Assembly: GCF_964194025.1 (NCBI RefSeq)
Contig: NC_134474.1
Span: 43,152,001-43,216,000 of the forward strand
DNA from: Convolutriloba macropyga
Lineage: Eukaryota
Direction: 5' to 3'
Length of the DNA stretch: 64,000 bases
Below are positions 22,370-45,296 of the stretch, one piece after another. A program made the translations under genes and the position numbers. Within the stretch, counting starts at the first letter, position 1; the number at the start of each line of letters is the position of its first letter. The notes under the pieces are model-generated. The model was not told the origin of the DNA and made no database searches. It saw nothing but the letters and a program-made list of their open reading frames with translations.

Positions 22370-22371
<2 letters not shown>

Positions 22372-22422
<51 letters not shown>
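22372..22422. repeat. (CT)n microsatellite
   Basis: Directly visible. Confidence 0.98.
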
Positions 22423-22425
<3 letters not shown>

Positions 22426-23599
22426 TCTAAGAGCGAAAACTACTCCTCCGCTAAGCGGGAAATATCGCAGCAATTGTAAGTCTGCCGATTTTTATAACAA
22501 AGGAAACTTAGAGTATTATTCACATCCAGCAGTAAGATGGATTTAATTACTTGATTAAAATTAGATTCCCCACCATTTTTTCAAGTAGGATTTGCCCCCC
22601 ATTGTGCTCTATCCTTTCTTTTTGGTTCTTAATTATTCTTTATATCTAATCAATTTTTTTCTAGCAAATAACACGTAGGTTTGGAAATTAGAAAAAAATA
22701 TTGTGAGCATTTAGTGAGACTTATTCTGGCACTTAATTAAGGTCGCTAAATTAATATTGATTTAGCTCTAGTGTGGTAATTAGGATCAAGCTAATAAAAT
22801 CCCTACCACATCAGAGTCAAAAACTGGTGCGACGAAGAATAAAGAACGTCGGTTGCTCACAAATAATTAAAAACTTGGTGGACTTCTTGTGGCTAGTTTT
22901 CCGAACCAAAACTCAGAGGTCACACAGGTTCTATGGTAGGGCCACATACCGAGCTATCCCAGTACCTGTGCGAGAGGTTCTAAGATTCTGACTTCCCTAA
23001 TTAAGGCCGACCAAAGCAGACGGGTTCTCCCTACAAAAGAACAGTTCACTGATTAGTTACTGAGCGCCGGTTCTTTGCTTCTTAGACCCAATTTCTGACA
23101 CTCTTATTTGGTTTTTTAAGCGCACACCTGAGTAAAAAATTGTGCATCATAGAAACACGTCTTTTTACTCCCCTTCCGAACAATATTAGACAAAACCGGT
23201 CACCTTAATGCTACTTTTAGACTAAATATTTTTTTTCAACTTAATCAAATCTTTAATAATGTCAGCATAAGGAACTGTACTATCCCCCCTGGTCGTCTAT
23301 ACGAAATCATATGCGCATATTCCTTAATTTATCTCTCATAATATGTCATTAATTTAACTTTAGCGTGTCTTAAACCTCTTAGTTTTTCACTCATTGTCTA
23401 AATTATTGGACTTATCATTCTCCAAACCGCTAGTAATGCAGAAAAAAATGACCCACATGCAATTAAGCCTAGTTTAACGTTGTTTTGCTTCATTTTTCAT
23501 GCATAGTGTATCTATTAGTGTCTCTAAAAATTAAAAGCTCACTCTGATAGCTACAAATAACGTTGCATTGTTAATAAGCGTCTCATCAATTGCTATAGC

Positions 23600-24600
23600 G
23601 CCTAAATTTAACGCCTGAATTCTTAAAATTTCGCGGTTTTAAGTTGAACAGAGGTGGTTTTATCAAGTTTTTAGCCCAATTTTGTCTTTTTTCGCCTAAG
23701 TTAACAGGAATTAGTGAGGTTTTATTCAAAAATCGAACAATTACACCAAAATTTTTTACTAGAATTGTCCAAAATAAATTGAAAACTTTCAAATTATATC
23801 AGATTTTTGAAGAATTTAGCCCCATTTAATATTGAAATTGTATGTTTTTGCCTAAATTCACCCCAGTTTTGAGCAAATAAATGAATTTTGGTTCCAAATT
23901 TGAACTACATTTGACCAAAAAAAGCCCAAATTGTCCCCTGAGTTTGCCAACTTAAGCTCATAGAGCTCTAACAGTCACTAATTTAGACCAGATTTTTTTC
24001 AATTTTTACTTAAAAATTGTCCAATTTTAGACTGTTTGGTCCTAAATTTGCCAATTGTTAACCAGAATATTTTAGTTTTCGTCCAAAATTTACACAAATT
24101 TATCGGTTTTACACCAATGTTTACCATGGGTTAACCAGAAATTAGCCAAATTTGGTAAATTTTAACCACATTTTAAGCTTTTAAACCCAAAATCGATACA
24201 ATTTCGACCACAAATTGTTAAATTTGTCCAAATATATTGACATAAAAGCGCAAAATTGTGAAAAAAATGACCAATTTGATCCAAATATTTCGCAATTTTG
24301 CCCTGTTTCATCAAGAAAACAGGCGGTTTTGGTAATAGATTGTCAACAGTTTTTCAAAGTTTTGTCTAAATTGATCCTGTAATTGATCAAAATTGACTCA
24401 AAATTGTCTTTTTTTGCGCAAATATGACCCCAAACATTTGTGAAAAAATACGAAACTTGTGAAAAATTACTTGAATTGAACCACAAAAGCAGAAAAATAT
24501 CTCAATTTGAATAAAAACTGGCAGATCAAATCTCGAAATTGCTCTTAAACTTGCAAACAACTTCCTAAAACTGGCCGACAATCATCAAGTATTGGTAAAT
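23600..24600. other. Stretch of A/T tracts with apparent 10-11 bp phasing
   Basis: AAATTT/AATTT/TTTT tracts alternate with CC/GG/GTCC roughly once per helical turn, with no exact repeat unit. Confidence 0.5.
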
Positions 24601-25312
24601 ATTCGAACAAAAAATAGCCGTTAAAAGGCTATCAGCGCCTGTTGTGAGTTAATCTACTAATAGCATAATAGAGTTTCGTCCAAAATTAACCACCAAAACG
24701 GCAAACTTAACAGAAGTATCACGATCATTTCGTGCAACCTTCCTAAGTAAACGTTCCCTTTACTGTTATTTTGTGATTTAAGTTTTTCCTTCGTTTTTCA
24801 GAGCCATATATTTGATTGTTCTTGTTAGGTTACGTATAATTTTGCAAAGCAATTCACCTCAACAAATTAATAGCTCAAGCTGTTATCGAAAATTGTATAG
24901 AATATCAAATAGGAGACAAACAAATAAGTTTTAAACATAACTCAGCAGACTGTCGGGTGCTGAAATACGTCACCGACTTGAACAATCATACGTGACAGTA
25001 GTCTACCGTATTTAATGAACAAAAACTGTTAGACCGGTAACCAAATTTAAAACTGAAAGTACATCATTAGATTTTTTGCTTAATAGACTTAACAGACGTG
25101 GCCCCATCATCTATTTACAATGTATGTACACTCAAGCACAATAAATGTACACTCAAGCACTTCCAATAAATGAATGCAAGCAACCAAAACCTTAAATTAG
25201 TACCCTAACTAGATAATAAGCTCTAAAAATTTGAGGAAGTTTACATTTTTTCGCCAACATTACCTAACTTTAGTAAAGAAATAATTTCAAAAGAAAATGT
25301 TAGATGTATCCT

Positions 25313-25704
25313 TGTGATACCTGGTGGTATATTTATTCATTTTATTTAATTGTTGCAGTAAAATTTATTTGATGCCTTTAAATTAGTTCAATTACTTTCA
25401 CCTTCAATAACTTTGTTCAATTTGTTTACCTTATGATTTCATTCCATTGTCTGATAGTTTCCCGCTTCGTGATCAGACATGTCTGATCACGTATTCACGT
25501 TGTTCCCAAGTGGCTCCAATCTGTTAAATATTTTCCTCCTAATTTATGCAACTCAATTCAGTTTGTAAAACTGTCTCTTGTTCTCCCGCTCCGCAAGTAA
25601 GCGAAACAAAAGTCAAAGTAGATCTCGCTTCGCGAATCGCTCATAAACATTCCGTCTGCACACCCGCAACGCGAATCACCACAGCAAAATAATAAAGTAC
25701 GACA
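25313..25704 (+). repeat. 5' LTR
   Basis: TGTGATAC...GTACGACA; AATAAA near the 3' end. Confidence 0.97.
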
Positions 25705-28700
25705 TGGCGCAGTCAGCAACGAAAAGAACAACTCTTGGAATCGACCCTTTCTGGGACAAACCGACACCGGACCCACCACTTCGATGGGAGAAGTGGAGAG
25801 TTCAAAACAAATTAGCGCTTTTAGCCAAAGAGAATATCATCCTGGACACGCTACTCGGCCCGAAACCTGAAATGGTGGAGCTACCCTTGGAACCCATCTA
25901 TGAAGAGACTATTGTGGGTGCATCTGCACAATCAGAGAGGGAAAGGAACGCGCGCAACGCGCAACAAAAGATGAATTGGCAAAACAAATGCCAACTTTTC
26001 ATCGAGATAGGCATAATGTGTGGTGACAAACCGTGGTCGTTGGCGGACCGAAAATCAGTATCTCTTCTCTACTTGAGTATTGGAATAGAGGAACGCCGTA
26101 TCTTAAATTGTAAGAACCCGCATATTATGATAGATACACTATCAACTCTTAATTTCTGGAAAATCGTAGAAGAAGCATTCATCCGCCCGCGTAACATAAC
26201 ATTTGATAGACACGTCTTTCTGATCACAAAACAACTCAGAGGGGAAACTGTTGAACACTTCTACGGTAAATTAAAAGAACTGGCAGAAAACTGCGACTTT
26301 GAGAACAAAGAAGAAACTCTGATACGCGATGTGTTCATCACAAACCTGATCGACCCTGAGATGCAAAAAGAGCTACTAAAACAAACTGTGGAACCGCGTC
26401 AAGCATTGGAATTGGCAATCAACATGGAACTCGGAATGCGAAATCAACACCAAATTCAACAACATAACAAAATTGTTGTCCCGGCGAACGTAAATGCCGT
26501 ACAGTTCAACAACAATTCACGAAGACCGTATTGGCAGAACAACAATAACAATGCTGCAAGACAGAATAATAGATCAACACTCAACTGTTCCAACTTTGGT
26601 GGAATTTGGCTCCCAAATCATCGCGAAAAATGCATCACAAAAGGAAAGACGTGCAACAATTGCGGATTGTTAAACCACTTTGCAAAAGTCTGCCGCAAAC
26701 AACAAAAAACCATCAACCCAAAACCACAAGATCCCAAGAAAAAGATGGTTCGGGTAGTGGAAGAAGATCCACATCCAGAGGACTCAGTAAACTTTGTTCA
26801 ACCGCCAAAACTCTATGAATCTGATTACAGCAGCGGCGAAGAGGACAACACAGTTGCCATGATTGATTCCGCAGTAGAGAAAGTTGAACCCCTCAATATG
26901 CCACTCAAGATTGGAAACGTTAATACAACCCTGCTCGTGGACTCCGGGAGTGCATGCAGTATATTGCATCATTCACTCGCGTCGCAAGTAGTACAGGACA
27001 GCCCCCGCGCTTTCTGGATCCACAAATCGTCACCAGCACAACTACGAAATTTCTCTAACGAGCCAATACAGGTACTGGGAAAAATCCAAGCTCCAATCAC
27101 AAGCAAAGGATGGGTATGCAACACAGCAACCTTCACCGTTGTTGCTGACGGCTTAAAGTCCTTAATTGGTCGTGATTTGTTCGACCAACTTGGACTTGCT
27201 GTAACGCAATCAACTTTTCAAAAAGGTAATTATGTCAATAACATTGCATCCTTGGAATTTAAAGAGCAAATAGCTACAAAATTCCCTGGTTTGGTATCTC
27301 GCATCGGACGATCAAAAAGTCATGTAGCAAAATCTAAATTTCACAAAAATTTCAAAGCTAGACACCAAAAAGGTAGACGAATTCCTATTAATCTCCAAGA
27401 CAAAGTTAATACAGAACTTCGAGAATTATTAGCCGAAAAACACATTATAAAACTGTCGAGCTGCCCAGATAATTATTTCATTTCACCTATTGTGGTGACT
27501 GTTAAAAAAGACCAAACGATAAAGCTTGCATTGGATTCAAAAGTTTTAAATAAAGCTATCCACAAAAACAAATATCAAATGCCGAATATTGATACGCTCA
27601 TTGAATCAATTTCTCAACAAATAAGCGCTCCCGCCTCGCAAAACACAACTTACTTTTCTACGATCGATCTGAAATACGCATACAGTCAATTGAATTTGGA
27701 TGTTAATACAGCTAATCATTGCAACTTTAATATAATTAGTGGTGATATGACTGGCACGTATAGATTTCAAACAGGATTTTACGGACTTACAGATATGCCA
27801 GCAGAATTTCAAAAAGCTATGGATTATACTTTAATTGGCTTGAAAAATACATATTGCTTTCTGGATGATATTTTAATTGTTAGCAAAGGGTCTTTGAATA
27901 ATCACAAAAATTACGTCATGAAGTGCCTACAACGTTTAGATGATGAAAACCTTAGGATAAATTTACCTAAATGTCACTTTGGAAAACTAAAAATTGACTG
28001 GCTTGGGTATCATATATCACAAGAGGGTATCTCGCCTCTCGAATCTAAGACTGCGGCAATTTTGGCTCTTGATGCACCGAAAACATTAAAGAAACTCCGT
28101 TCATTTTTGGGATCCGTCCATTATATTGGGAAATTCATCCCAAATTTAGCCCAAATAAGCCACCCCCTTCGTCCGCTACTGAGAAAGTCTTCAAAATTCA
28201 TTTGGATGACTGAGCATGAAAATTGTTTCCAAGAAATAAAAACCCGCATAGCGAACGCTACTGCTAATAGTCACTACAACCCGCAACTCGAAACACGCGT
28301 GAAATGCGACGCATCTCGGTCAGGTCTTGGTGCGGCGCTCGAACAATTAACTGTAGATGGGTGGAAACCAATTGCGTTCGCGTCTCGATTTTTAAACTCA
28401 TGCGAGGAGCGCTATAGCGTAAACGAACTTGATTTTTTGGGTGTAGTCTGGTCCACAGAATATTTCAAAAATTATCTGTATGGAAAACAATTTAAAGTAA
28501 TTACTGATCACAGAGCACTTCTCTCAATTATGAAAGAACACCGATCTAATAAATCCTACAACACTAGATTAACCCGATGGGTAGATCGTCTTCTCCATTT
28601 TCAATTTGATATTGAACACCTTCCTGGGGCAAAAATGGGTTTGGTAGATTATATTTCTCGCAATCCATCTCAAAAAGCTAAAAAGGTCTCCACATATGAT

Positions 28701-30737
28701 GAAGAATTTATAGTAGCAAAGTTGAAACTAATCTCGAAATCAATTAACACATTAGAATTAAAAACTGAACACCCCACATCACGTTTACACCAGTTACTAA
28801 CAAATCATACACTCGACCTGCAAAACACACCTAAAATTGAGACACATAACTCCCCACACCAATTCACACCTAAATTTGAGTCTCTTAATAACTCAATAAA
28901 TTCACTTAGCACACGCGCTATGCAAGTATGCGAACATGTATTTAGTCATCCACTCGCTCCGCGAAATCATACCTCAAATAGTAGTTACCAATTAAACAAT
29001 TTAAAATATGCACCACTCGCGTCTCAAAATCCACTTAGCACTCCTCTCGCTCTGCAAAACACCAGTAATAACAAACAATTAATCCAAATTAGGAATAAAG
29101 TGGCATACGCGCAGCACAAGCATCAAATTACTCAATTACAAATCCCGCCAATCGAATCACATTCCGAAAATAACTCCAAAAGTCACCACCCAGAATTCAA
29201 ATCAGTGCTTTTTGCCCCTTGTCGATCTAGAATTCAGTCGCATTCTTCTAATCTCAAAAACTTAACTAAATCATCATCCATAATTAAAGACATCAATTTA
29301 ATAGCTAACAGTATGCCGTCAAAGAAAAGAATAACCAGAGTACGATTCAACGATACATCCCGCGCAGCGGATCAACCCTCAACCAGTGAAAACGTCACGC
29401 GCACCGCGAGTACGCGATCTAATTCAACATCTACACCCCGCACAGCAAATCAACGCCCGCAAACCATTAGTATTCCGCCGGCAACAAGCATGGCACACAA
29501 CATAACCCCAACATCCCCGACCCATTCTTCGAATGCTAGTACCCCGTTAACGCCGAGCCCGCACGTCCCCACGTTTGATTATATAGTATCAAAGATATTC
29601 AGTAAAACGCTCATCGCTTCTCTAACTAGCAAAGATGCCGTCTTAAAAGAAGTCAGGGATTGCATACTGACAAATAACGAAGCCCGATTAAAAGCCATCA
29701 ACCCGTACATACATTCGTACTGGAGGGACCTTCACGTGCGCTCCGGCTGCGTATGCATAGACGAGAAGGTAGCTATCCCCAACGTGCTTCGCGAAGCACT
29801 CACAGATGATATTCATGCCAGCCATCCAGGTACATGGGGCATGATTTGTATGGCAACACATTGCTGGTGGCCTTACATGCATCGGGAGCTAATAGTAAAG
29901 GCCACTGAGTGCAAACCGTGCACAGTAATTGGTAAGAATCTAATATCCGTAATTCCCGCTAAGAAATTTACTCCTCATGTACCATGTGTTGAACCTAATC
30001 ATGAAATTCAAATCGATTTTGGGGGACCAATTTTTGATGAAAAGAACAATGAAGTATATTTTTTGGCAGCAATTGACCGTTTTTCTAAACATCCAATTGC
30101 ATACATGTACGAAAAAGCTAATGGACCAAATGTTCTAAAATTTTTGGACATGTACATCGAAACTCACGGAATTCCAAGATCTATCCGTTTAGACCAAGCT
30201 AAATGTTTAATTGGACATCAAGTAAAGACTTTTTGCAATAAAAACAACATTGAAAATATTGAAGCGCCTGTAAATGATCACCGTGCTATTGGGTTGGTGG
30301 AACGATTAATTCAAACAATTAAGAATAGACTCGCATTTATCAAAGAAGAGAAATTAGCTGCACACGCCTTTCATGTAAAGCATGCATTAAAGATAATCAT
30401 TCACCAATTGCGAATATGTAAACAAAGAACAACAAAGATCTCGCCCTTCGAAGCACATTTTGGGAGAAAACCTAATACCCCGCTAAGCGTGATTGCAACC
30501 AAACCGAATTTGATGAATTTGTCGTATAAGCGTATCATAAATCACTATTTAGACGAAGAAACAGTGATGCCGGAGGAAATATTGCCTGACGACAAATGGA
30601 TAAGTGGATACCGAAGCGACATTGAAGTCGAAAAGGGCATGACACGCGCCACAACGGAAGCAAGCGCAAGAGAGAGGGCGAGCACGGATGGCGAATCCAG
30701 ATTCCTCAAACAAAAGCAATCCGCCCCATTCCCCTAA
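25704..30737 (+). CDS. Single-ORF Gag-Pol polyprotein (Gag with zinc knuckle, protease, RT, RNase H, long linker, integrase)
   Basis: CNNCGLLNHFAKVC knuckle; LVDSGS protease; IDLKYAYSQL and FLDD RT; CDAS...TDH RNase H; HASH...CKPC HHCC; IQIDF...RLDQ...GLVER integrase DDE. Confidence 0.97.
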   Translation: MAQSATKRTTLGIDPFWDKPTPDPPLRWEKWRVQNKLALLAKENIILDTLLGPKPEMVELPLEPIYEETIVGASAQSERERNARNAQQKMNWQNKCQLFIEIGIMCGDKPWSLADRKSVSLLYLSIGIEERRILNCKNPHIMIDTLSTLNFWKIVEEAFIRPRNITFDRHVFLITKQLRGETVEHFYGKLKELAENCDFENKEETLIRDVFITNLIDPEMQKELLKQTVEPRQALELAINMELGMRNQHQIQQHNKIVVPANVNAVQFNNNSRRPYWQNNNNNAARQNNRSTLNCSNFGGIWLPNHREKCITKGKTCNNCGLLNHFAKVCRKQQKTINPKPQDPKKKMVRVVEEDPHPEDSVNFVQPPKLYESDYSSGEEDNTVAMIDSAVEKVEPLNMPLKIGNVNTTLLVDSGSACSILHHSLASQVVQDSPRAFWIHKSSPAQLRNFSNEPIQVLGKIQAPITSKGWVCNTATFTVVADGLKSLIGRDLFDQLGLAVTQSTFQKGNYVNNIASLEFKEQIATKFPGLVSRIGRSKSHVAKSKFHKNFKARHQKGRRIPINLQDKVNTELRELLAEKHIIKLSSCPDNYFISPIVVTVKKDQTIKLALDSKVLNKAIHKNKYQMPNIDTLIESISQQISAPASQNTTYFSTIDLKYAYSQLNLDVNTANHCNFNIISGDMTGTYRFQTGFYGLTDMPAEFQKAMDYTLIGLKNTYCFLDDILIVSKGSLNNHKNYVMKCLQRLDDENLRINLPKCHFGKLKIDWLGYHISQEGISPLESKTAAILALDAPKTLKKLRSFLGSVHYIGKFIPNLAQISHPLRPLLRKSSKFIWMTEHENCFQEIKTRIANATANSHYNPQLETRVKCDASRSGLGAALEQLTVDGWKPIAFASRFLNSCEERYSVNELDFLGVVWSTEYFKNYLYGKQFKVITDHRALLSIMKEHRSNKSYNTRLTRWVDRLLHFQFDIEHLPGAKMGLVDYISRNPSQKAKKVSTYDEEFIVAKLKLISKSINTLELKTEHPTSRLHQLLTNHTLDLQNTPKIETHNSPHQFTPKFESLNNSINSLSTRAMQVCEHVFSHPLAPRNHTSNSSYQLNNLKYAPLASQNPLSTPLALQNTSNNKQLIQIRNKVAYAQHKHQITQLQIPPIESHSENNSKSHHPEFKSVLFAPCRSRIQSHSSNLKNLTKSSSIIKDINLIANSMPSKKRITRVRFNDTSRAADQPSTSENVTRTASTRSNSTSTPRTANQRPQTISIPPATSMAHNITPTSPTHSSNASTPLTPSPHVPTFDYIVSKIFSKTLIASLTSKDAVLKEVRDCILTNNEARLKAINPYIHSYWRDLHVRSGCVCIDEKVAIPNVLREALTDDIHASHPGTWGMICMATHCWWPYMHRELIVKATECKPCTVIGKNLISVIPAKKFTPHVPCVEPNHEIQIDFGGPIFDEKNNEVYFLAAIDRFSKHPIAYMYEKANGPNVLKFLDMYIETHGIPRSIRLDQAKCLIGHQVKTFCNKNNIENIEAPVNDHRAIGLVERLIQTIKNRLAFIKEEKLAAHAFHVKHALKIIIHQLRICKQRTTKISPFEAHFGRKPNTPLSVIATKPNLMNLSYKRIINHYLDEETVMPEEILPDDKWISGYRSDIEVEKGMTRATTEASARERASTDGESRFLKQKQSAPFP
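25705..25718 (+). promoter_or_regulatory. Primer-binding site, probably tRNA-Ser
   Basis: TGGCGCAGTCAGCA directly after the LTR is complementary to ...UGCUGACUGCGCCA, an invertebrate tRNA-Ser 3' end recalled from memory. Confidence 0.8.
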
Positions 30738-31585
30738 AAGAACGATCGGTAGAGTTAAATTTGGCTCGCAAAATTCACGGCAAAAGACGATCCAAGAAGA
30801 AACTTGAAGGTCTTTATGAGGTTCTCGACCCAGGATCGCACATCCTAAAAGTAAGCCCGACTACATCGACCATCAAGGAGCCGGGCAAACAAATTGTTAC
30901 CGTCCGCAATAGCGATATTGCCAAATTCGGCACCCAACAGGAGAGACAGACTCCATTAAAAGTATATGCTGAGAGACGCAGGCCACGTTCTGGGGAGAAA
31001 ACCGTCGAAGAGTTGATCCACAGCCACATTAAAGAGTTCACCCGAAAGCAAAAGGGTAATAAAAAGATGAAACATAGGAAGAGAGAGCCGGGCAGCGGAG
31101 TCTCTTCACAGCGCTCAAACATTTCTCGCGCGATGCGGGGGCGAGTTCCAAATTTGCCAAATTTTGCCGCAATCCGAAACGCACAACCTCCACTCGAGAT
31201 CAGCGAACCGACTACAAATGCGCCTACTGATCCACCCGCAACAGCATCTTCAAAACGATCTTCTGACCGTAATAGGCGAAGCCCGTCATATTATGGTTTC
31301 GAAACGTCATCTCCAGGATCAGACATCCTACCACCATCTAAACGACCCCGACGAGCGGGTGATGTCGAAAATTTTGCACCACCTGTCACCGTTGTCGAAT
31401 CGGTACAACAAATCCTGGAACTCCAACCCGAAGAGCAAAACGTGTCACCTCAGATTGGTTCTGTCTCGCCTCCCGCGGTACGAAATGTACCTTTGCTAGA
31501 GACGGACACCCCGACATTGGCTAGATCTATGACTGCTCTTGATGCAGAGGAACAAGATTATGAAAATGAAGATTGGACCTTGTAA
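30710..31585 (+). CDS. C-terminal continuation of integrase in the -1 frame (GPY/F-like motif plus basic, disordered tail)
   Basis: Frame is open from 30710 (TKAIRPIPLKERSVELNLARK...LEGLYEVL), overlapping the end of the main ORF; most simply a 1-nt deletion in this copy. Confidence 0.75.
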   Translation, partial: TKAIRPIPLKERSVELNLARKIHGKRRSKKKLEGLYEVLDPGSHILKVSPTTSTIKEPGKQIVTVRNSDIAKFGTQQERQTPLKVYAERRRPRSGEKTVEELIHSHIKEFTRKQKGNKKMKHRKREPGSGVSSQRSNISRAMRGRVPNLPNFAAIRNAQPPLEISEPTTNAPTDPPATASSKRSSDRNRRSPSYYGFETSSPGSDILPPSKRPRRAGDVENFAPPVTVVESVQQILELQPEEQNVSPQIGSVSPPAVRNVPLLETDTPTLARSMTALDAEEQDYENEDWTL

Positions 31586-31768
31586 AACTTGAAAACTAAA
31601 AAGACATTTTATATTGTATTAATCATCGTATTTTTAGTTATGATAACCAGCAAATATATTGATATTATCTATTTAACCGGGGACCTTGTATTAATTTGTA
31701 AATATTGTTATTATTAATTATCTCTGAAAAATTGTATATTACAATTATTCTTCTTGCTGTGAAGGGTA

Positions 31769-32160
31769 TGTGATACCTGGTGGTATATTTATTCATTTTA
31801 TTTAATCGTTGCAGTAAAATTTATTTGATGCCTTTAAATTAGTTCAATTACTTTCACCTTCACTAACTTTGTTCAATTTGTTTACCTTATGATTTCATTC
31901 CATTGTCTGATAGTTTCCCGCTTCGTGATCAGACATGTCTGATCACGTATTCACGTTGTTCCCAAGTGGCTCCAATCTGTTAAATTCATTCCTCCTAATT
32001 TTTGCAACTCAATTCAGTTTGTAAAACTGTCTCTTGTTCTCCCGCTCCGCAAGTAAGCGAAACAAAAGTTAAAGTAGATCTCGCTTCGCGAATCGCTCAT
32101 AAACATTCCGTCTGCATACCCGCAACGCGAATCACCACAGCAAAATAATAAAGTACGACA
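31769..32160 (+). repeat. 3' LTR
   Basis: Direct repeat of 25313-25704, preceded by GAAGGG. Confidence 0.97.
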
Positions 32161-33076
32161 ATCCTAACAAGAAAGTCTGATAGCAGTAACCAAATCAATT
32201 CATATCGAGTTACTGTTTTTAGGCAAAATTTAACTACAGCCTCCTCTGAAAGCACCCAAAAAGCAAAATTTTGTCACACAGGGAAACTTTTCTGGATAGA
32301 ATATGGACTAAGAGAAAATGGTTGCTATCTTAGAATAAACAAATATTCATAACTAATTACTTCCAAATACTTGTGTATAAAACAAATTGGAAAACAAGAC
32401 GAAAATTCGTTTCCTTTTTCATTGTTTTATAACTAAGCGTATAGATATTAAAACAAAGCACCTAAAAATTACCATTTTGTGCGACAAAAAAGTTGCAAAA
32501 GTTTAAAAATTCACCCTAAATAACGACAAACAATCTTTGTTTATTTATTACAAGTTCATCAACAATCCGCGTTAAAATTGTTTCATAACATATGCAAGTT
32601 ATAATCCTGATTTTTACAAAACTTTGAAAATTTGCACACGCCGAATAGTTATATTGAGCTCTAGTTCACTAAATTATACTTAAAAACTTGAGAAAATTGT
32701 GATTTCAATGAAGATTGACATTAATTTTTTGATCATTACTATTACACTTGGTCACAATATACGTAAAACTAATAGTTATAAAACAGATAAGCAAAAGCAA
32801 TATATGTTAATTCTCATTAAATTTGATAAAACAAACCTAATTTCAGCAAAACTTTAGAAGCTATCCGTACTCCAATTAGTGTTTTTGAAATAGGACCAAT
32901 TGTTTAAGCAAATTGTCTAAAACTTTTCTAAAATTCATAAAACTTTTGATCTTTTTCAAGCCTCAATTTCTTTTGATTAAACTTTTGTATTGTTTCCATT
33001 CGTTTATGTTATCTTTTTATATATAAACTTCCTTAAACAATACAAGTAATCATTGAACAAAAACCTTAAAATAAAA

Positions 33077-34370
33077 ATGGCGAACATTGTAGCATACCCA
33101 GACATTTCACTTGAGAAATTTACAAGCGTAGACCCAAGTGAGGACGTAGAAGAATTTCTAAGTTTACTAGAGCGGAAAATCGAATATTCGTTAGGAGTTA
33201 GACCAGGAGCAGGAGACGCTCAAAATGCATATGACGCACGCAGAAAAGCACTATTTGGCTCAGTCCTAAGAGGAACAGCAGCCCAATGGTTCGATTCTTC
33301 GCCGCCAGCAGAGCCATGGGAGGATGTTAAAACAGGTTTTTTAAATAGATTCACAGACGAGAATGACAAGTACAGAAAACGAATTGAGGTAGAAAACATT
33401 CGGTAGACAACCAGACGAGTTATAAAAAAGTTATGTACACAGACTAGCAAAAGCAGTGGAAAAAAGATGGCAGGACCCATTCAGAGACGTTCAAAGGCAA
33501 ACTAATTTTATGAAATTCTTATAAGAGGACTAACTCCTCCAGCACCTAAACAAAAAACGCATCAATTTTTGATAGAAACACCTCATTCAACATGGGAACC
33601 ACTTAGAAATTATGTGAGCACTAAAGATTTAGGTTTTGAAGTGAGTAGTGGTTTCAAAGGCACAGCTTCAAGCAGGATAGATAACAAAATAGAGATAGAT
33701 CGTATAAAATACCAGCTTCAAGAATTAGCAATTTTAATGAAAAAAAAAACAGAATTAGCGCAGCCCACAATCCAAATGAGCCTAGAAACGAGCAAAATCA
33801 CAGACGATTTTGCAAATTTTTTCAGAAAATCGGGTCAGACAATAGCATATTGTTCTGCGAACAGAGCCTTTCAAGAACAAAAAAGACAGCAACCTCAGCA
33901 AAGAGATAAGTTCAGAGATCTATCAAAGCCATAGAGGACGTCGTCCAAGAGAAGATAGTTATGAAAGGAATCAAAACAGATATTGACAGAACTACAGACC
34001 AAGAAACAGTTACTACAGCCAAGACAACCACAGACAATACTCTATTTATCCTAGATCTCAGAAAAATAATTTCAGAAATCGCCCACAAAGCTTTGAGAAT
34101 CAAAATCGGCGCTAGAGTATTAGATCCAGTGACCGTAGACCCCAGGACTACAGAAAATATTCAAGGGAACGACAATATGATCAAAACGATTTCCAAACAA
34201 GTTATCGTGAGTCGAACAGTCTATGACAGGATTATGGGAGAAGTAACAGTTCTAACCGAAATTCTAGAGATAACAGCAGAGAACGTAATTCAAACAGAGA
34301 TCAATTCAGAGATATTAAAGTTAACAGATTTTTTGTGGACGATCAACAAAAAGAAATTAATTTCAACTAG
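33077..34370 (+). pseudogene. gag of a large decayed Gypsy element
   Basis: MANIVAYPDISLEKF...DVEEFL...LRGTAAQWF...WEDVKTGFLNRF capsid-like motifs; decayed zinc knuckle near 33805-33855; R/N/Q-rich tail. Confidence 0.85.
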
Positions 34371-37300
34371 ACGAGGCTCCGTACAAAAATAAGAAGACAA
34401 ACATTTTTAATAACTGGTACATTTACGTCGTCGGAGACAGTAATAAACATAACGGCTCCGAATCATAGTTTCCAGTTGACACAGGAGCAACGTGTTTTTT
34501 AAAAAATTTTGATTTTTTTTACAAGAACTCAAAATCACTGATTGATGTTAAACTAATTGAATCTAAACCAAAAACAATTGCAGTTAACGGTGAACGATTA
34601 AAATTGTTAGGCTACATTCATGTTTCCGTCTCATTTGACATTGAAAGCAAAATTTACACAGATCTTAAATCATGGGTTTCATTGAAAAACGGTTGCGAAT
34701 TAAACATCCTTGGAATGGACTTTTGAATTTTGCAACAAAATCAATTGAATTCACAACGCCAAAAATGAACTTGAATTTTTATCCAAACGTTTCAATCACG
34801 CTTTCAAAATACCAAATGAAAAGTTATCCCTTTGTAAATAAATTTGAAAAAGTTGTGCTTAATAAATCTTTCGAGCTAACACCGAAATCTACTAGAGTTC
34901 TAACAATTACACCATCAAACCAATTTATCAAACAATGAATAACATTCATAATTGACAATCGCCTTCGAGACAAAGGTAAATACACATACAATGTCTGTTG
35001 CGTAAGGAAAGAAAAGTAATTACCAAAAATGCTTAACAAACCTGGTGATCGTAAAGTAACAAAAGAAAAATATTCAATAGGGTACACTTTGGAGATTTAT
35101 CAAAAATCACAAAAATACACACTGATTGATAAGGTTGCGTTCCTAGATGTCTTAACAGAAACCGAAACAGATTTCAATCACGTCTCTCATGTGACTGAAA
35201 AATGTTGAAAATACAATTCAGATGTTAGAAAATCCGAAATTAGACAAAAGAGATATCAAACAATAGTTGAAAAAAACTCTGGAAAAAATTACAAAAAAAA
35301 AGAATTTGCTGAACATCATGAGTTGGAAACAGACTTCAGTTAGGATCTAAAAGACTTAAAACCAAAAACAACAATATAAGGTGAAACTCGACCTCAACAA
35401 GTACCACTAGAAAAACTGGAACTATTTAGCAAATCAGACCGTGAGTTTCTCAAAGTTTTTGACTGCAGCCAATCAGACATTAACGATGCACAATAACTAG
35501 ATCTAATTAACTTCTTGCCAGAGACATGGACGTCTACTCTCAACATAAGTTTGACGTTGGCAAAATTAAGCAAGAATTTCTTGTAAAGCTTCTACCAAAT
35601 TCAACTTTGACTAAGCAAAGACCATCATGTGTACCATTGCATCACCAAGAAAAATTTGAATTTTTGTTACAACAGCTCTGTAAAGCTTGAACAATTCGAG
35701 AAATAAGAGACGACACCGAAACGGGATCGTCAATTATTAAGCCAGTAATCATCCTTCCTAAAGGAAACATAGTACCTAGTAATCGACGCCAGGTATCTAA
35801 ATTCAATAACCGACCTAAATAAATACTCATGGCCTCTAGAGCCAATAGGTTCTTTACTAACTATTTTGAAAGAAAACTACATCACTACAAATGGCTTATT
35901 CTCTGCATATAATTAAGTACCTCTAACGGACGAAACACAACAATTCACAAGTTTCGTAATAGGTTCAAAGCAATACACGTTTCAACGTGGTTTTTACGGA
36001 TTTTACGGACTACCAAATTTTTTCAGTAGGAAAATGACAATCCATTTTGCACCCTCAAAAAACTAGACAAGCCGTATATTGACGACACAATCATGCGAGC
36101 TCAGACAGCTGAGAAATGTACTCAATAATAAAAAAGTACCATCTTCTGCTACGCAAAGCAGGACTGAAAGCTCAGCCTGAGAAAACAAAATTCGTTTTGC
36201 GCAAAGTACAATTCTTAGGATATGTAGTAGGCAAAGACCGAATTCAACCGGTAAAGAAAAGAGTTGAAGATTTGAAAGCCTTAAAGACACCTGAAAATAA
36301 GCGAGATGTAATGCGAGTCCTACATTGTTTAGGATTCTACAGCAAGTACATTAAAAACCTTAATGTATACAGTAAGCCAGTTTACGATCTCATAAAAACC
36401 GAAACTACATTTGACTAGACAGATTAACAGGAAAGTTGCTCAGATAAATTAAGGATCGTATAAATGAAGATACAGTCTTAGCAATTCCAGACACAAAATA
36501 CCCCTCCCATGTTCATGTAGACGCATCATCAATTGGTGATGGTTCAATCTTAGTATAAGAATTTCCTACCGGAAAACGGACAGTCTCATTTAATTCTAGA
36601 GTTTACACAAAAGATGAGCAAAAAATACCAAAACAGCTAGAGAAGTTTGTGGTGTAATTTCTCCTCCACAAACGTATGATCATTACATAATAGGTTTTCC
36701 ACATCCAGTGTATCTCTACACAGATCACAAACTCCTACTGTATCTTTCGGGACGTAGAGGAAAAATAGCTCATCGTTTTTTCAGCTATCAGCTTGTCATT
36801 TCACAATTTCAAAACTTGACAAAAATCTGGACAGAAGGCAAAAACCTAGCTTTTCCAGACATTCTAAGTAGAAACGTCTCAATAAAAGACTTAGACAAAA
36901 ATCAACTTAAACACAAAAGATTCCCAAAGACATTAAGTTTTACGACGAGTCAGGCAACCAAGAAAAACATTTCGTGTTGCACGACAATTTAAAAGGGAAA
37001 GAAAAACAATTGCTATCCCAATCTGAAACAGACTTTTCTAGAAGTTTGAAAATTGAATTATGAAAAAGTACAATTTTTTCAGACAAACTAAAAACACAGC
37101 GATCGAATTTGTTCAACTTCGGAGATCCCAGAAACCGTCTTAAAAATAAAACGCAATAATTTACTATCGTGACAAATTTTCAGTTTTCACCGATTCTAAG
37201 CGAACAAGACGACAGCGAAAACTACTACTCGGAGTTGTCTTTAGAATTTGATGATAATTTAGACAAAGAGAAAGAGCAATTTCAGAAAGATTCTACAACA

Positions 37301-39427
37301 GAAGAAGACTCTTTGCTTAATTCTGTTGAATTGTCAGATTTTGAAATAAGTGACATGAGTCTCGAGCAAGCGTTGAAGCAAGCAAAGCAAACTTTGATAG
37401 AAAAGGAGGTGTTCACCTACCAAAACAATTTGTGAGAATAACGAAATTTCAGATCGAAAAGAACTCTCTCAGAAATTATCTAATTTTGCTAGAGATATCG
37501 ACTTGAACATAACACCAATCAGCCAGGAACAATTCAAAGACCCAGTCATTTAGAATGTCAGGCAAATTTTCGAATCAGGAGACAAAGATGAGAAAAACTT
37601 AAAGTTTCAACTATCAAAAGCCATGAAAACATACTTGAATAATTTTGAAAACATTTGCCTCATCAGAAACAATTTATATATTAAACAACCAACTGAAGCT
37701 CCAAACATTCAAAACATCAAAATCTGCACCATTATCACCCTTCTTAAAAATTTTTGAATTTGCTCACCAGTATTCAATTTCTGGACATTCTGGAAGAGAT
37801 AAAACATTGTCAAGAATTAAACACTCTTTTGTACTGGCCAGTTATTTGGAAATGGGTTTCTCACCTAAAAGCAAATTGTTTAGACTCTCAATAAAATAAG
37901 CAAAAACGCAAAGTCAACGGAGCACCACTTGAAAAATGGACTGTACTTTTTCCCTTCCACACGTTACATATAAATCACAAAGGTCCAATAAGTCCACCTT
38001 CAAAGGGAAATAAACATTGCTTAGTAGTAATTGTTTCTTTTTCCCGTTACAATTAGGTTTACCCAGTTCCATTAACATCAGCGAGTTAAACAATATCAGC
38101 ACTTTAGAAATTTCTTCTTACTATTGGTATCCAACAAAAACTTGTGTATGATAAAGGAACAGCTTTTATGAACCAAGAGTCCACAAGTTGGATTCATGAA
38201 GTTGGATTTACGCACGCTCATAGAACAGCATAATCTCCCTGGACCAACAAAAAATTGAGATCCAAAACAGGCACCTTGGCGCGCACTTCCAAATATTTTT
38301 TGAGCGAGCTAATCGTAATTGGAACAACTTAGCGCCAAAATTTTGCGTTTGCTCACAACACCACAGCAAACACTACGAAAAGATTAACACCCTATGAGAT
38401 TGTTTTTGTTCATGAGCCTCAAATTCCACTTTATCTAAAATTAGGATTATTAAGGGCTTCCGACTTAACTTGTTACTTAGAATTCTGCAAGGATTTACCA
38501 CTCCACAAACATTCGGAACAAAGTAGCAAGAACGATCAGATAGACAAACTGCTAAAACCAAAATTAAGTAGTTCACTGCTTGCTGGTTAGAATTAATTTA
38601 AACAAATTTACAAAACTGCATAAAGCAGAAGCCTTAAAACAAATGAAAAGCACATCAAAACAGCAACAAACAAAAACTAGGTAAGCCTTTGGACATTGGA
38701 CAGCTCGTTTTAATGGAAAATCATTCAATTGAAGACGGAAAATCCAAAAAGTTACACGAACTGAGAACAGGGCCATACGAAGTTACGAAAAAGTTGACAG
38801 ATGTAAATTACGAAATAGAACTTGTATCAAACAAAAATGTCAAAAAAGTTGCTCATAGAAAACACCTAATTGAGTACTTCCCAATTGAAAGCGCAATTTC
38901 AGAATTAGTAGTTGATTATGGTTTAAGAAATGAAAACTTCCAACCATTCTACCAGAATTTAATGAATAAACAATTTGAAAAACTAAATAGGCCAGTAGCT
39001 AAATTATCTTTTTAACAACCTTTCACTGAAATTGAATTTTTTCAAGTAGACAATTTTACAAGTAATTCAGATTATACACAAAATGAAAATCAACATGAGA
39101 AAACGCTGGAAGATAACAAAACCACAACACAATAACAAAACCGGACTGAAGTTTTCAGAAATGTTCTTCAACTACTTTTTTAGACAACACACAAATACTT
39201 AATAATCGTAGCGTAGTAGAAATAGAAGTTTTACCCCATACCCTGAACGTATTTGTTTTGCAGATCCACCTGACATTAGAGTCAGCCCTGTTAGAACCCA
39301 ACCCCGAATACAGTCACCCGAAGCAAATCCAACTTCTTCGGATGATCAACGTTCATCTCGAATAGATCGTCGATATTCGGGACGATTGAAAAAACTTACT
39401 AAACTCTATCATGCGGGATTTACTTAA
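34370..39427 (+). pseudogene. pol (PR-RT-RNase H-IN) of the decayed Gypsy element, many stops and frameshifts
   Basis: VDTGA near 34476; YIDD near 36075; KVQFLGYVV; VHVDASS; YTDHK; HSGRDKT; VYDKGTAF; TPYEIVF; TGPYEVTKKLTDVNYEI. Confidence 0.92.
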
Positions 39428-39578
39428 ATCTCACTTTTTATCTTTATTTTAAAAGTTCAAATGATCGGAAAATTAAATGCCGAGACCTTTTGTATTACCT
39501 TCCTCCAGACTTACTCTTAGCTTTCTGACACTACGAAAAAAACCAAAAACTCAGTCAATCACTAACAAAAAAGTTATT

Positions 39579-41909
39579 ATGAGAAACAATAACTTCTTTT
39601 CTAAATCTTTAACTAATTTGTTGGTCTTTATTATTGTATCCTTTTGTAGACCCTTAGTTAAGAACGAGTTGGATGACAGTTCCCCTACATTAAAAGTTGT
39701 TCATTAAGACTGTTCAGTACTGAAAAAAAGCAAATTTATTCTTTAAATCAAGTAGCCCAATGCAAAATTAAACCTGAAAATTTTAAAGTTGTACCGGCAA
39801 CGGTTACACTGTATCAAAGATCATGCAAAACAAAGGTTGAGGCAGTAATGTGTCGAGTAAAATTGCAAGCTTTAAGCTGGCACCATGGCTTTTTATCGCA
39901 CTCTTCCTTAGCATATGACCAAGTTTCCCTTACAACTGACGTAATAGTAACGCCAGTGAACTGAAGAATTGTTAACAAAACAGGAAAAAGTTCAATAACA
40001 GAGTACGATGGAACTTATAAGTTAAACAATTTAAGCGAAGTTTTAAAACACCAACATACACACGGTTGTCTGAGCGAGGACGATCACTTAGAAGATAACA
40101 CAGATTGCTCTTCATCAGGAGAAGAAAAACTTTTTTCCTTTGAAACACAAATACAAAGAGTTGAACTTGAAGTTGATCAGGAAACCAAATTAGTTTTTAC
40201 CCCGTTAGGATTGAAAGTTCGATGCCAACTAAAAAAAAGTTGTGAACCAACATCACCAGACCCATTCGCTGACTCTTGGGATGCGCCACAAAATTTCGTT
40301 GTTACAGAACTTTTAACACAAGTAGCAAAAAAGAAAAAATTCACAAAAGGAGCAGATCCACCACAAAACTACATCATAAGCACACAGTACATTCAAAATG
40401 ACATTTATCTTTTGCAAAATAACATGAAAACAGATCACACGCGAGACATAAAACTGAGGAAAAATAAAGAAAGCCATTATATTCGTGGAAAGGCTAGTTC
40501 TTTGTTTATTACAAACTTTTATTTGTTTCTTTTGCCGGAGGATTTGATATGAATACGGGAAAAACCGTAATTTTGCAGAATAATGATAATAATTACAAAA
40601 TGCAGGTCGGCACCGACAAAACAATAAGATTGAACGGTTTTTACGAGACACCTAAAAACGAGCTAGTTGGTAACCAACATTTTGGAAATCATAGACAAAA
40701 TTTTGAAAATGTTGGAAAATGCACTATCGATTAAGATGCTCATAATTGTATTGAAATTAATTTCACGATGTAAAAAGTCTATTTTGATTTAGAACAGTCT
40801 GACTTCCTTATTTTACAAAATACAAGCGAGCTCAGACAAATTCAAATCCAAATGATTAATGCATTGTCTTACAAAAACAATAGGTTGGCCGGATACATTT
40901 TAACCGGAAATCTTTCAATGTTCTTAGAAATTGAAGGTGATATAAAGTAGGTCACCTGTATCCGTGTCCAAAGTAAATTTCGCCGCTTAAAGTACTTGAT
41001 TGCTGTTACGACCAGTTTCCCCTCTTTTATGACAGAAAAACTATGTTTGTTAATCCTATTACGCGCCAAACATTTCCATTTGCTAATGAAATAGATTGTA
41101 CAGATACTTTCAAAAACTTGTTTTAACTTGATTTTGATAACACTAATTCTTGATATCAGTTGATGCCGGCGCTAGTTCCTTTTAAACCGCGCGCTGTTTT
41201 TGCTCCACGACAATTTGGTTATATTAAAAAAAATCCCTGATTGTGTTTCTCGTCTTGCAGGTACATACAAAGTAAACCAGTTGAAAGATTATTGGAGACC
41301 AATTTTGCACAAATCTGCTTCTCATTCAGCTTTGAAAAAGTTTTCTCAAACAGTGCTTCAAAACGCACACATAGACAGTAGTCAACTTGATATCTATCGC
41401 GCGCAGTTCTCAATAATCAGTTATAATTAAATTCAATGTTGGCACCATCTGTTTTCCTTGATCATTTTAAAAAGACTTTTGGACAAATTGGCAATTACGT
41501 AGAAAAAGCCGGAATTTTGTTTGCATATTTCATGTTAATCAAGTTTTAGATCGATGTTGTAATTTTTATTCTAAGAGCTTTTGAGATAGAAAAACTGTCA
41601 AAAAACACTATTGGTTTTTGGAAAACATTACTAGGAGCCTCGTGCAATTTGTTTCTACTTTCTATTGTAGCATCAATTCATCAAGCACCTAAAGTTGATG
41701 AAAACTCTGATAACAATACAAACAATGAACCAAGCAGAAGTCGTTATCTCAAGTATACACCAGATAATAACATTTATCATGACAACAGTCCAACAGAATT
41801 GTCACCACTGACTGCCCCCGAAGAACCATTAGCTCTTGTGCTAGAAATACCACATATTTTCCCTAAAAATCTTACTGATCAAGAAGTAATTGCATTTGCT
41901 CCCCCATAA
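39579..41909 (+). pseudogene. env-like gene: chuvirus-type (class III) fusion glycoprotein, decayed
   Basis: Signal peptide (LTNLLVFIIVSFC); across frameshifts H*DCS...YSLNQVAQC...VTLYQ...VMCRVK...WHHGFLSHSS; ELRQIQ...LAGYILTGN...CYDQFP...TMFVNPITRQTFPFANEIDC; C-terminal hydrophobic AGILF...LIKF.IDVVIFILR...LLGASCNLFLL. Confidence 0.75.
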
Positions 41910-41989
41910 CTCAATCATCCAATTTCTCTTTTTATACCTAACTAGTCTCACCTAATACACTCTTATTAGCCTAAACTAACTGTTTCAGC

Positions 41990-43450
41990 ATTAAGAGCTG
42001 AGACGCAAAACTTTTTTGATCTTTTTTCACGATTTTTATGGAATCATATAATACTCTTTTATACCTGCTTATGAAAACTTAGTGCGTTTAAAAGTTCGCG
42101 CACCTAAACTTTCTGACATAATAGGCATACTAATTTTTACATTTCACGAAAAATTTTATACCCTTAAGGAATTTTTATATGATTGTGAATATGGTCTGGG
42201 CAACTTAGGAAACCACATCCACTTTCTATTATAAAATGATGCATCTCAATCTTCAAAAATCCCATCGGGAACAGCTTATATTTACTTGCTAATTTTTTTC
42301 ATTTTAACTATTTTTGCCTTATTTCTTAAACATTTCAGAGAACCGAACGTATTCATTGTAAATTACAAATACTTTGAGCTCCACCAACACGAAATTAACG
42401 TTTTGGAATGTATTTTTATTAACAAGGCAGTTTAGTAAAATCTTATCAAATCAATCGATCCTTCACAGTTCACTTCCCCTATCAAATAAACCCCATTTTA
42501 AAAGTTCTGTTTGATTTTGTTGCCTCTTGGGACGAAGGTTCTATCACCATATCAGCTTTTTCCACTTATTGTAATTTTTCTGATGCTTTTTGAGCAAAAA
42601 TTGGATCAAATTTACCTTGGTTTTTTCAACTGGTGATGACTAATGTACAGATCAGATCCCTTATCCATAAATTGAATAATATTGTGTATATTATCATTGG
42701 ACTATCCACCACCCACATTTCTTTCATAATTTATATTCGCCAACCCCACAGCATTTTGAATCAATTTTTAAATTTAAAAATTAACCACCACCAAATACTT
42801 GAAACTGCCTTGTTCCGATATTTTTATTCTAACGCCGAACTGACAATTAGGTACCCGTTTACATTATCTTATATCATGTTTTTCTTATTAAATAAAGAAC
42901 TAGTCGAAGTTTGTAGTTTCGAAAAAAAACCTTCAAAATAGAACCTAGCCTTCAAGCTTTCATTTTAGTGCTCCTGAAGAACGTCCAAACCCAAGAGCAA
43001 TCAACCCTTTCAGTATATCCCACTTCTGTTTATTGGAACTATTTTTTTATCTCCTCGAAAGTTAGGCCAAATGTGCCAAAAGTGTCTCCACAGAAAACAA
43101 TAAACTATTTTTAAAATGATATTCCCATTTGAACCAGCATTTAGTCAGAATAACTGACAATAAACGTACTTTCACTGAAGCTGATAACCACACTTCCCAT
43201 TCTCTAGAAATTAACTATATAAATATCGGCACTAAGGAAATATAATTAAAATACTTACTCCTCTATCACTCCACTGGAATTTCTTTTTAAAAACTGAAAA
43301 GTCCCTTAAGTTAAAATTGAGTCAAATAAACCCCCCGGCCAACATCATCAACGAAACTATTTACCCTAACCGTGACTTCTGAAATGGAAAACTATTTCTG
43401 CTTCAAATTAGTTTTCCCCCTACAAAATTCGTCACGCCTCCTATTGTTGA
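41990..43450 (+). pseudogene. Decayed accessory ORF(s) downstream of env, unknown product
   Basis: Same-strand protein-like frames broken by stops (IPAYENLVRLKVRAPKLSDIIG; FDFVASWDEGSITISAFSTYC; QMCQKCLH). Confidence 0.4.
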
Positions 43451-43460
43451 ATACCGTAAT

Positions 43461-43790
43461 GAATGCCCCATTTGTCTAAAGAGTACTTCCTGTTGGAAAA
43501 AATTGCACCCTTCTGAAGGAGACTAACACTCCCACTTAGTTTGCCGCGATTGTAGAAATAAATTTTTCCTCCACTCTCCCCAACCCAATTGCCCCATTTG
43601 CCTCCGCCAAATTTATAAACTATCCCTTAATTTTTTTTTCGATGCTTTTATTATCGCCTGTAACCAAATAAAGAACTCCACTCACCCTCACATAAAATGT
43701 CACCAGAACCTTGGACATTTTGTGTTTGTTGCCTGTGCGAAAGATAAGAATATTTGCCCCACCTGCTTGAAACAGATTAACCCCCACGAC
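43461..43790 (+). pseudogene. Tandem RING-finger coding remnant
   Basis: ECPICLKSTSCWKKLHPSEGD*HSHLVCRDCRNKFFLHSPQPNCPICLRQI, then KCHQNLGHFVFVACAKDKNICPTCLKQI. Confidence 0.75.
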
Positions 43791-44330
43791 GTTTGGTCAG
43801 AGAGTTCTTGAACGATGCAGTCTATTCATATCCCGATTTTTGTTCTTCTCTCTTTTATCATCACCCTTTCTGTTGGCCTCCTCATAGAAGTCCTACTCCT
43901 TCTCCTCCTCTAACGACCCTTCAACACAAACAAGTATATGCTGCAATACAAAAAAAAACCAGCTGCGCGGGCCGTCGCACGGAAGGGAGTCACGAGGTCG
44001 GATAATGGATTTAGTCAGTTAAATCTGAAACAATCTGATCTACAACTCTTACACAAATATTTTTTGGATTAACAGGATATTCCTATTTTAAGAACGGAGA
44101 TTAACTTCCGAATTTCGTTTCCTTCAAATGTTTCTTTTCTTTCTTTCTACCCAGGTGGGAGCTTCGTAAAATTGATTCAGCACGTAATGTGTGATTGCAT
44201 TCTTGTACTCAAAGAGTATGAAATTTTTGGTACGATAAACCGTACGATGGTTTTGGCTTCAAAAGTTTATATTTCATCTTAAATGTTTTTAGATGTTTAT
44301 AATCACATAAGATGACCAAAAGAGAACTAG

Positions 44331-45272
44331 AAGATATCCAGCTGCCCACAGAGCACTATGAACCCGTGAACAACTTGATGACAGACCTTCTCCCATTGAC
44401 AAAGAAATCCTGAGCAATCCATCCTCGCCAACTTGGCAACAACAAGAACGACAATCACAAACAGCGTCATCTACAAAACAACAGCAAACCCACCAACCCG
44501 AACAACAATTGCAGGAAACAATTAAATCACAGCCTTTTCGACCTTTGCCCAAAAACCCATTAGATGGTGGTTTACCGAAACTAAAATTCTTCCCACTGAA
44601 ATATGCTCGCCTGGAAATCCAAAGACTAAGAGAGATGCTTCCACTTGACCAGAACCCGAAGTTTTTAACTTCTCTAGGTTGCTCACTAACAGCTGAATAC
44701 AACCATTTGCGCCTCCCAGAAATGACAGTGATCCAAATCGTCAAAACCAATACCAAAATCCAAGTACCAACAGAATCCCTGACAGTGATTCCGAACATTT
44801 TCCTTGTACCTACCGTAAGGTTTTGGAGACTTACGAATAGAACCGATCAGGATCGGAAATACGAAAAAGAGAAAAAGGTTCTGAACACTCGTGTTGAAAT
44901 ACCATTCGAGCAAATAACAGCATTTCCAAGCAGTGATTCATCACAACCGGAGACTATTTTGAACGATCACCTCATTGTTGAAAATTCCAACTTCCGGCGT
45001 CAGCTTTGAGATTCAGAGTCCAACATTGCCGAAATACAGAGCAAACTCGACCGATTGACAATTTCAAAACAAACTGCCGTCACAAAAAGGAGGACCTGAG
45101 AATGCAATTAGTGATCTCATCACAAACTCTGAAGATCAGAGATCGTCAACAACAAGAGTCTTTACAGAAAGCAAATTAAATAATAGAATCAAATAAGCTT
45201 CTCGGACACCAGCTCAAGGAACTGAAAGATATACAGAAAGTCTTTCCAGCAAAACTTGACAAAGACAATTAA
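44331..45272 (+). pseudogene. Decayed accessory ORF: Q-rich N-terminus and C-terminal coiled coil
   Basis: Includes ORF 44509..45009 and continues through a stop into EDLRMQLVISSQTLKIRDRQQQ...LKELKDIQKV. Confidence 0.5.
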
Positions 45273-45296
45273 ATTTTCATATTTTTATGTTCTTTT

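Follow-up and report, generated by a model that had tools for sequence, protein, structure and literature searches.

The window, that is, the whole stretch of 64,000 nucleotides of DNA analysed here, most probably carries the decayed env gene of a Ty3/Gypsy element of about 18 kb, organised as LTR-gag-pol-env-ORF4-LTR and likely resident in an acoel genome. In the same reading, which is given a probability of about 0.8 as a whole, the protein encoded by intact sister copies is predicted to be a class III fusogen, and the element likely spreads from cell to cell as an enveloped particle. Env is best interpreted as a member of an old pool of HSV/gB-type Gypsy envs, spread across metazoans and having a common ancestry with the G proteins of Monjiviricetes, and not as a recent capture from a chuvirus.

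The decayed element in the window

Features of the element are listed by their positions in the window, with the evidence for each.

21834..22822, + strand: 5' LTR of the element that bears env, broken up by small repeats, with TG...AA at its ends; 78-80% to the LTRs of young copies
22825..22842, + strand: primer-binding site-like motif (TGGTGCGACG...)
22843..33076, + strand: long 5' leader, split by a nested element; alignment to the leader of a young copy
25313..32160, + strand: nested, unrelated Gypsy element inside the leader; LTRs 98% identical, 5-bp TSD ATCCT, 1696-aa ORF
33077..34370, + strand: gag, decayed; weak Retrotrans_gag match (intact paralogue 430 aa, E 1.2e-7)
34361..39389, + strand: pol (PR-RT-RH-INT-GPY/F), decayed, in -1 frame relative to gag; Pfam on window pieces
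39487..39509, + strand: predicted env splice acceptor, polypyrimidine tract plus CAG, ~70 nt before the ATG; sequence
39579..41909, + strand: env, class III (HSV/gB-type, PF24664) fusion glycoprotein, decayed; Pfam, alignment to a paralogue, fold model of the paralogue
41910..44311, + strand: spacer between env and ORF4, 2.4 kb, no long ORF; 76-78% to young copies
44312..45260, + strand: decayed ORF4 whose allele type differs, with a second copy at ~47587-48627; 48% to the central domain of a young copy

The env gene starts with an ATG at 39579, terminates with a stop at 41907-41909, and was read in the three forward frames. The preliminary description, made from the sequence alone, had listed motifs shared with viral glycoproteins; all reside where they had been placed, spread across the three frames (VVH*DC, YSLNQVAQC, VTLYQ, CRV, GFLSHSS, LAGYILTGN, CYDQFP, FVNPITR, IDC, IKF*IDVV and LLGA). 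Two of six single-frame pieces of the gene, one of the six being in a non-coding frame, matched the Pfam family PF24664 (Monjiviricetes_fusion) with E values of 9.5e-8 and 2.6e-3, and the family was matched in none of 14 control genomes. Relative to a natural, unbroken paralogue (87.2% identity, 2027/2324 nt), the window env features five internal frameshifts, near positions 39734, 40518, 40943, 41226 and 41402, and nine premature stops. Differences are spread over the codon positions (84/89/123), and for this reason decay seems to have been mostly neutral. The env gene of the window copy is dead.

The 5' LTR starts with TGTAGT and ends before AC-TGG. The TGG motif, which lies 2 nt past the LTR in young copies as well, resembles the Ser-GCU type described in the survey of Chary and Hayashi (eLife 2026; PMC13524379), with two extra bases; a pattern search found no tRNA matching the primer-binding motif. 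The leader of a young copy can be aligned to segments 22397-25296 and 32164-32829 of the window. The nested Gypsy is younger, lacks env, and carries an extra 319-aa ORF without a Pfam match; its pol is 27% identical to that of the host element. RNase H, integrase zinc finger, rve and GPY/F domains were recognised by Pfam in pieces of the decayed pol, and the slip heptamer at the end of gag is degenerate. No 3' LTR is visible in the window, where ORF4 is followed by stretches of N (45297-46154, 48628-48861).

Additional repeats mark the region. A 3.3-kb tandem duplication, spanning 44254-48627, includes ORF4. Repeats of ~630 bp lie beside a LINE-like endonuclease/RT (49373-51347) in the interval 46969-53334. 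Another Gypsy-type element, broken by stops and with a gag matching DUF1759, is found at 57694-63625, and may extend beyond the window end. Satellite-like arrays, made by units of ~180 and 112 bp, and MITE-like inverted repeats are located at 7036-10160 and 19735-21627.

Intact copies and related families

A DNA search of the same genome with env returned 150 candidates, of which 40 were scored, all 86-100% identical. The env ORF, 778 aa in length, is present in 15 of 19 paralogous loci. Ten copies were examined with their flanks: all carry env and a fourth ORF (323-338 aa), a 1696-aa frame for pol is found in four, and in seven an LTR lies at either end where expected, to give elements of 18.0-18.1 kb in which env lies between the same LTR pair. 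LTRs of young copies have TG...AA termini, the two members of a pair differ at 1-11 of ~933 sites, and 4-bp TSDs were found in 7/7 copies. Six of nine copies are 97.8-99.3% identical to one reference copy over 16-18 kb. The family is thus young, about 18 kb in size, and made by many near-identical copies.

Several signals point to the way in which these elements may be expressed. In young copies the leader measures 3474 nt (~3.5 kb), and the LTR features TATAAA at 409, AATAAA at 904 and a donor-like GTAAGT; the LTR would provide promoter and poly(A) signal, and drive a full-length RNA. An in-phase TTTAAAC is found at the end of gag in 6/6 other natural copies, belonging to four families. As the heptamer fits the known slippery-site pattern, Gag-Pol would be made by -1 frameshifting at this site. 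Env would be read from a spliced subgenomic RNA, joining the donor-like GTAAGT in the LTR to the acceptor before the ATG. In two young copies the candidate acceptor, 69 nt before the ATG, ranks in the top 1.2-1.4% of background positions by a crude score; scores were not significant for the env of other families, nor for ORF4. Contigs from four runs contained no joint between LTR and env, a result that is uninformative in either direction. The Env protein, with a signal helix, glycan sites, one clear TM segment and a long tail, would trimerise and fuse membranes. By analogy with Drosophila gypsy, Env-bearing particles may transfer the element from the soma to stem or germ cells.

The dN/dS of env is 0.09-0.20 in four of nine pairwise comparisons, those with dS of at least 0.04; values are 0.23-0.52, and noisy, in the five very close pairs. 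Among 15 intact copies, pN/pS is 0.09 for shared variants and 0.37 for singletons. Judging from these substitution ratios, env is under purifying selection.

PF24664 candidates in the genome number 2275, of which 68 were scored. Ten stretches around PF24664 matches were inspected, and a related Gypsy pol lies beside env in nine; the tenth is a deletion derivative. The env sequences fall into at least five families, 36-51% identical to each other, and the corresponding Gypsy pols are 46-69% identical. In trees built from seven copies, env and pol give the same deepest split; three inner families branch in a different order in the two trees, with weak support. From the wide divergence of the families, and the deepest split common to the two trees, env has long been travelling with this pol clade.

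Some relatives deviate from the standard organisation. The deletion derivative (C10:8010500-8018400) consists only of a partial LTR, env, ORF4 and LTR, and its frames are open. Its origin as a retro-copied spliced RNA was discarded, as the junction falls within the LTR at a distance from the donor-like site, and has the appearance of a deletion. In one related family (contig C2) gag and pol are fused in a 2058-aa frame, LTRs measure 368 bp, and a 611-aa ORF4 directly follows env. In the family with an env of ~900 aa (contig C6), pol and env are separated by 3.9 kb, and pol hosts a TARG1/OARD1-like macrodomain at residues ~330-450, between protease and RT (E 2e-19 to human C6orf130; Pfam Macro, E 7e-4). 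The macrodomain may reverse host ADP-ribosylation; macrodomains are not mentioned in the main text of PMC13524379. An acoel is the likely host judging from the one full-length COX1 of the assembly, which resides on a mitochondrial contig and uses the invertebrate mitochondrial code. It is 91% identical to COX1 of Symsagittifera roscoffensis (Acoela, Xenacoelomorpha) and 75% to that of Baltalimania; among the 120 rows listed, named non-acoels reach at most 68%, and Paratomella rubra, a distant acoel, 66%. Chromosomal COX1 fragments (C13:6185865-6187742) did not tie the nuclear genome to this host: they are not acoel-like, matching two non-acoel COX1 proteins at 86-88%, versus 50-58% for relatives of the host COX1, and possibly derive from a symbiont or a food organism.

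Fold, origin and role of Env

The protein encoded by the unbroken paralogue matches PF24664 (E 5.2e-44) and no other Pfam family, and viral PF24664 clusters rank on top in the ESM Atlas (score 0.96). A PDB sequence search with env gave no match, and a profile search one match at E 1.8. An AlphaFold2 model, built on 73 sequences (pLDDT 68.6, monomer pTM 0.36), was compared with the PDB by Foldseek: herpes gB is found in every listed row (best E 5.1e-15), at low whole-chain TM-scores (~0.2). By domain the agreement is good, superposition on domain IV of gB giving Z 7.8 and rmsd 3.6 over 163 residues (VIA). The modelled fold is that of a class III (gB-type) fusogen. The preliminary description had recognised a class III env resembling chuvirus G, and had suggested comparing a model with chuvirus G and herpes gB; both are matched by the model of the intact paralogue, and neither baculovirus F nor errantivirus F is found among the rows listed. 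The class III fold of the model, and the absence in env of furin-type sites (R-X-K/R-R), argue against an F-type class I env (baculovirus F, Drosophila gypsy).

Thirteen cysteines are conserved in 91-100% of the aligned rows. The ectodomain contains three N-glycan motifs, and one strong TM segment is predicted. The N-terminal stretch has a Kyte-Doolittle value of 1.56 over 19 residues. A double hydrophobic C-terminus had been noticed from the sequence: the stretch at residues 648-666 is indeed strongly hydrophobic (2.75), but the value is 1.39 in the helix containing LLGA (685-703), so that strong hydrophobicity is limited to one of the two stretches.

Among predicted viral structures, the best ten matches to the env model have E values from 1.8e-31 to 1e-22 and 14-18% identity. 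They are a mixture of xinmoviruses (Drosophila unispina virus 1), chuviruses (Tacheng tick virus 4, Wenling crustacean virus 14), chu-like entries, a qin-related virus, a rhabdovirus, and unclassified or unnamed viruses. Xinmoviruses tie with chuviruses at this low identity, and env is no closer to the latter than to the former. The chuvirus-specific resemblance initially proposed is therefore not sustained, G proteins of the xinmo-, chu- and qin-like types scoring alike; the resemblance extends to gB and to Monjiviricetes G proteins as a whole.

These data bear on the origin of env. Along the lines of the preliminary description, an acoel Gypsy lineage may have captured its glycoprotein gene from an RNA virus, either chu-like or from elsewhere in Monjiviricetes, in an event separate from those of BEL/Pao and of other Gypsy elements. 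Viral G proteins, chuviruses included, fit the env model better than herpes gB (E 1e-31 vs 1e-18), the acoel-type envs form a tight set (25-50% identity), and all env families found here reside on one related pol clade, which fits a single founding capture. The hypothesis is nonetheless unlikely: identity to any viral G is at most 18%, with the two virus groups tied, and the search for env relatives in viral contigs gave 14 pattern matches, none of them confirmed. Moreover, Gypsy elements with a gB-type env occur in cnidarians, ctenophores, tunicates and protostomes, and an ancient acquisition has been inferred (PMC13524379). A novel and independent chuvirus capture is thus not supported, the pairing being already published, the likeness general, and the acquisition argued in the survey to be ancient, and descent from an old gB-type env stock is preferred.

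As to the role of env, autonomous copies in several families have conserved the gene in cis, and shared variants have been purged of amino acid changes, as expected if env serves the spread of the element itself. Both features argue against a non-particle role, such as cell-cell fusion or transfer, or receptor blocking, in an element which copies itself inside cells. The existence of a derivative retaining only LTR-env-ORF4-LTR would fit such a role, and the route of transmission outside Drosophila is stated to be unknown in PMC13524379; on balance we consider it quite improbable. Spread as an enveloped particle is the favoured interpretation.

BEL elements are marked by DUF1758, DUF1759 and Peptidase_A17, and the order PR-RT-RH-INT is the same in BEL and Gypsy. 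An intact copy features, in the order and composition typical of Ty3/gypsy, Retrotrans_gag, Ty3_capsid (weak), protease, RVT_1, RT_RNaseH, Integrase_H2C2, rve, Integrase_p58_C and SH3_Tf2-1, and Pfam detected none of the three BEL markers in it. In spite of the common domain order, the possibility that the element is an Anakin-like BEL/Pao, or that a Gypsy pol is next to env only by chance, is extremely remote and largely refuted, because the intact copy has no BEL gag-pol and the same LTR pair encloses env in 7 of 10 copies; assignment of env to a Gypsy rather than a BEL element, already made from the sequence, is thus upheld.

ORF4 and comparison with known systems

ORF4 measures 323 aa in the young copy and lies 2.4 kb downstream of env. 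In its product, basic motifs at the N-terminus and a Q/H tract are combined with a beta domain in the centre and a coiled coil at the C-terminus. Homologues found after env in other families are 25-36% identical, and weaker in the ~900-aa-env family. In four of six stretches with distant matches ORF4 follows env; the remaining two contain either the ORF4 frame or the env frame alone. Between subfamilies dN/dS is 0.13 (two comparisons); no selection is evident among the 12 youngest copies, where pN/pS is 0.6-0.8 on 24 variants. Two copies which are 88-97% identical in flanking windows are 51-71% identical across most of ORF4 and just past it, and the window copy carries yet another allele type with respect to these two. 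From these identity profiles, ORF4 appears to have been exchanged between subfamilies as a cassette.

No Pfam family matched ORF4 above the cut-off, ESM matches score below 0.9, and the best PDB profile match has E 0.21; its 25 database relatives are all without an assigned name. The model (pLDDT 82) finds its best structural match in the PHF1 Tudor domain (Z 6.0, rmsd 2.4, 60 residues), followed by SMN, TDRD3, PWWP and KOW barrels (Z 5-5.7). Foldseek returned nothing below E 0.06 with the same model, and a wide fold search coiled coils only. The aromatic cage residues of Tudor readers are not obviously kept in the alignment, as judged by eye. Derivation of ORF4 from the C-terminal SH3 domain of integrase was discarded (hhalign probability 0.1%). 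A Tudor/SH3-like barrel followed by a coiled coil is a lead only; ORF4 is likely a nuclear accessory protein. By a wider and doubtful hypothesis, complex enveloped Gypsy retroviruses would have radiated in acoels, combining a gB-type fusogen with a swapped ORF4 acting through its Tudor-like barrel and coiled coil as nuclear chromatin reader or anti-silencing factor. If so, ORF4 would parallel, in an invertebrate, the accessory genes of retroviruses, the acoels being a bilaterian lineage that branched off early, and the radiation would also test the pre-Cambrian origin of env; an ORF4 reading chromatin or countering silencing would give Metaviridae an accessory gene of a new kind. In any case ORF4 is conserved and exchangeable, and fits into no known family.

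Glycoproteins of the same superfamily have been found inside LTR retroelements of mosquitoes. Anakin is a BEL/Pao element with a chuvirus-derived glycoprotein, 29-56% identical to chuvirus G (Dezordi et al. 2020; PMC7642597). Gypsy fragments in the neighbourhood of such genes, with no clear Gypsy capture, are described for Jg-EVEs in the part consulted of Dezordi 2023 (PMC10084718), and in that of Kojima 2025 (PMC12440569) only Anakin is still named. Unlike Anakin and the Jg-EVEs, the element described here has a Gypsy pol, its host is not an arthropod, and identity of env to chuvirus G is 14-18% in fold alignments, versus 29-56% for the mosquito glycoproteins, the alignment methods being different. 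This identity, together with the tie of xinmoviruses, speaks against a Chuviridae-derived glycoprotein. Env shares with the G proteins of Monjiviricetes (Chuviridae, Xinmoviridae, PF24664) and with herpes gB the class III fold, the cysteine pattern and the signal-ectodomain-TM layout; it differs in being encoded by a retroelement, and in having no sequence match to solved structures.

In bdelloid rotifers, LTR elements carry an additional ORF3, coding for a GDSL esterase or a DEDDy nuclease, which replaces env (Rodriguez et al. 2017; PMC5408684). Both systems have in common ORFs added as modules, which families share or exchange; in contrast to the bdelloid elements, ORF4 has here been added after an intact env, and belongs to no Pfam family. 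In the related acoel Symsagittifera, LTR elements account for about half of the genome, and the words envelope and gypsy do not occur in the portion of that report available (PMC9911081); given this abundance, enveloped elements may drive that bulk. Among the titles and abstract openings listed in literature searches, none describes env-bearing elements in acoels.

Chary and Hayashi (PMC13524379) catalogued 1512 env-bearing Gypsy elements. A Chuviridae-like glycoprotein also adjoins gypsy pol in their survey, 114 cases having been found with a mosquito BEL glycoprotein as bait. The pairing of Gypsy with a chuvirus-like G, put forward in the preliminary description, had thus been published across metazoans, and capture as such is not a discovery. 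Xenacoelomorpha are absent from the taxon list of the survey, and no acoel is found in seven supplements; accessory, fourth or additional ORFs, and splicing, are not described in its main text, and figures may hold more. The present elements share with the HSV/gB-type Gypsy of the survey the order gag-pol-env, a Ty3/gypsy pol, a class III env with conserved cysteines and without a conserved furin site, LTRs, and many near-identical copies. Correspondingly, pol includes RT and integrase, gag, pol and env form an LTR-bounded unit in 7 of 10 copies, the class III env has a predicted signal peptide and TM segment, and multiple copies identical at nearly 98% or more are open, the window copy being broken. 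Xenacoelomorpha are the unsampled branch most relevant to the question of vertical descent of gB-type env from early animals, and several intact, recently multiplied acoel families are on hand for tree placement. In contrast to the elements described in the survey, as far as its text goes, those found here likely reside in Xenacoelomorpha, measure ~18 kb, and feature a 3.5-kb leader, a 2.4-kb spacer between env and ORF4, and a conserved fourth ORF. What is new is therefore a likely acoel host, of a phylum missing from the survey, a young family of ~18 kb whose env is under purifying selection, and a fourth ORF which follows env throughout the clade.
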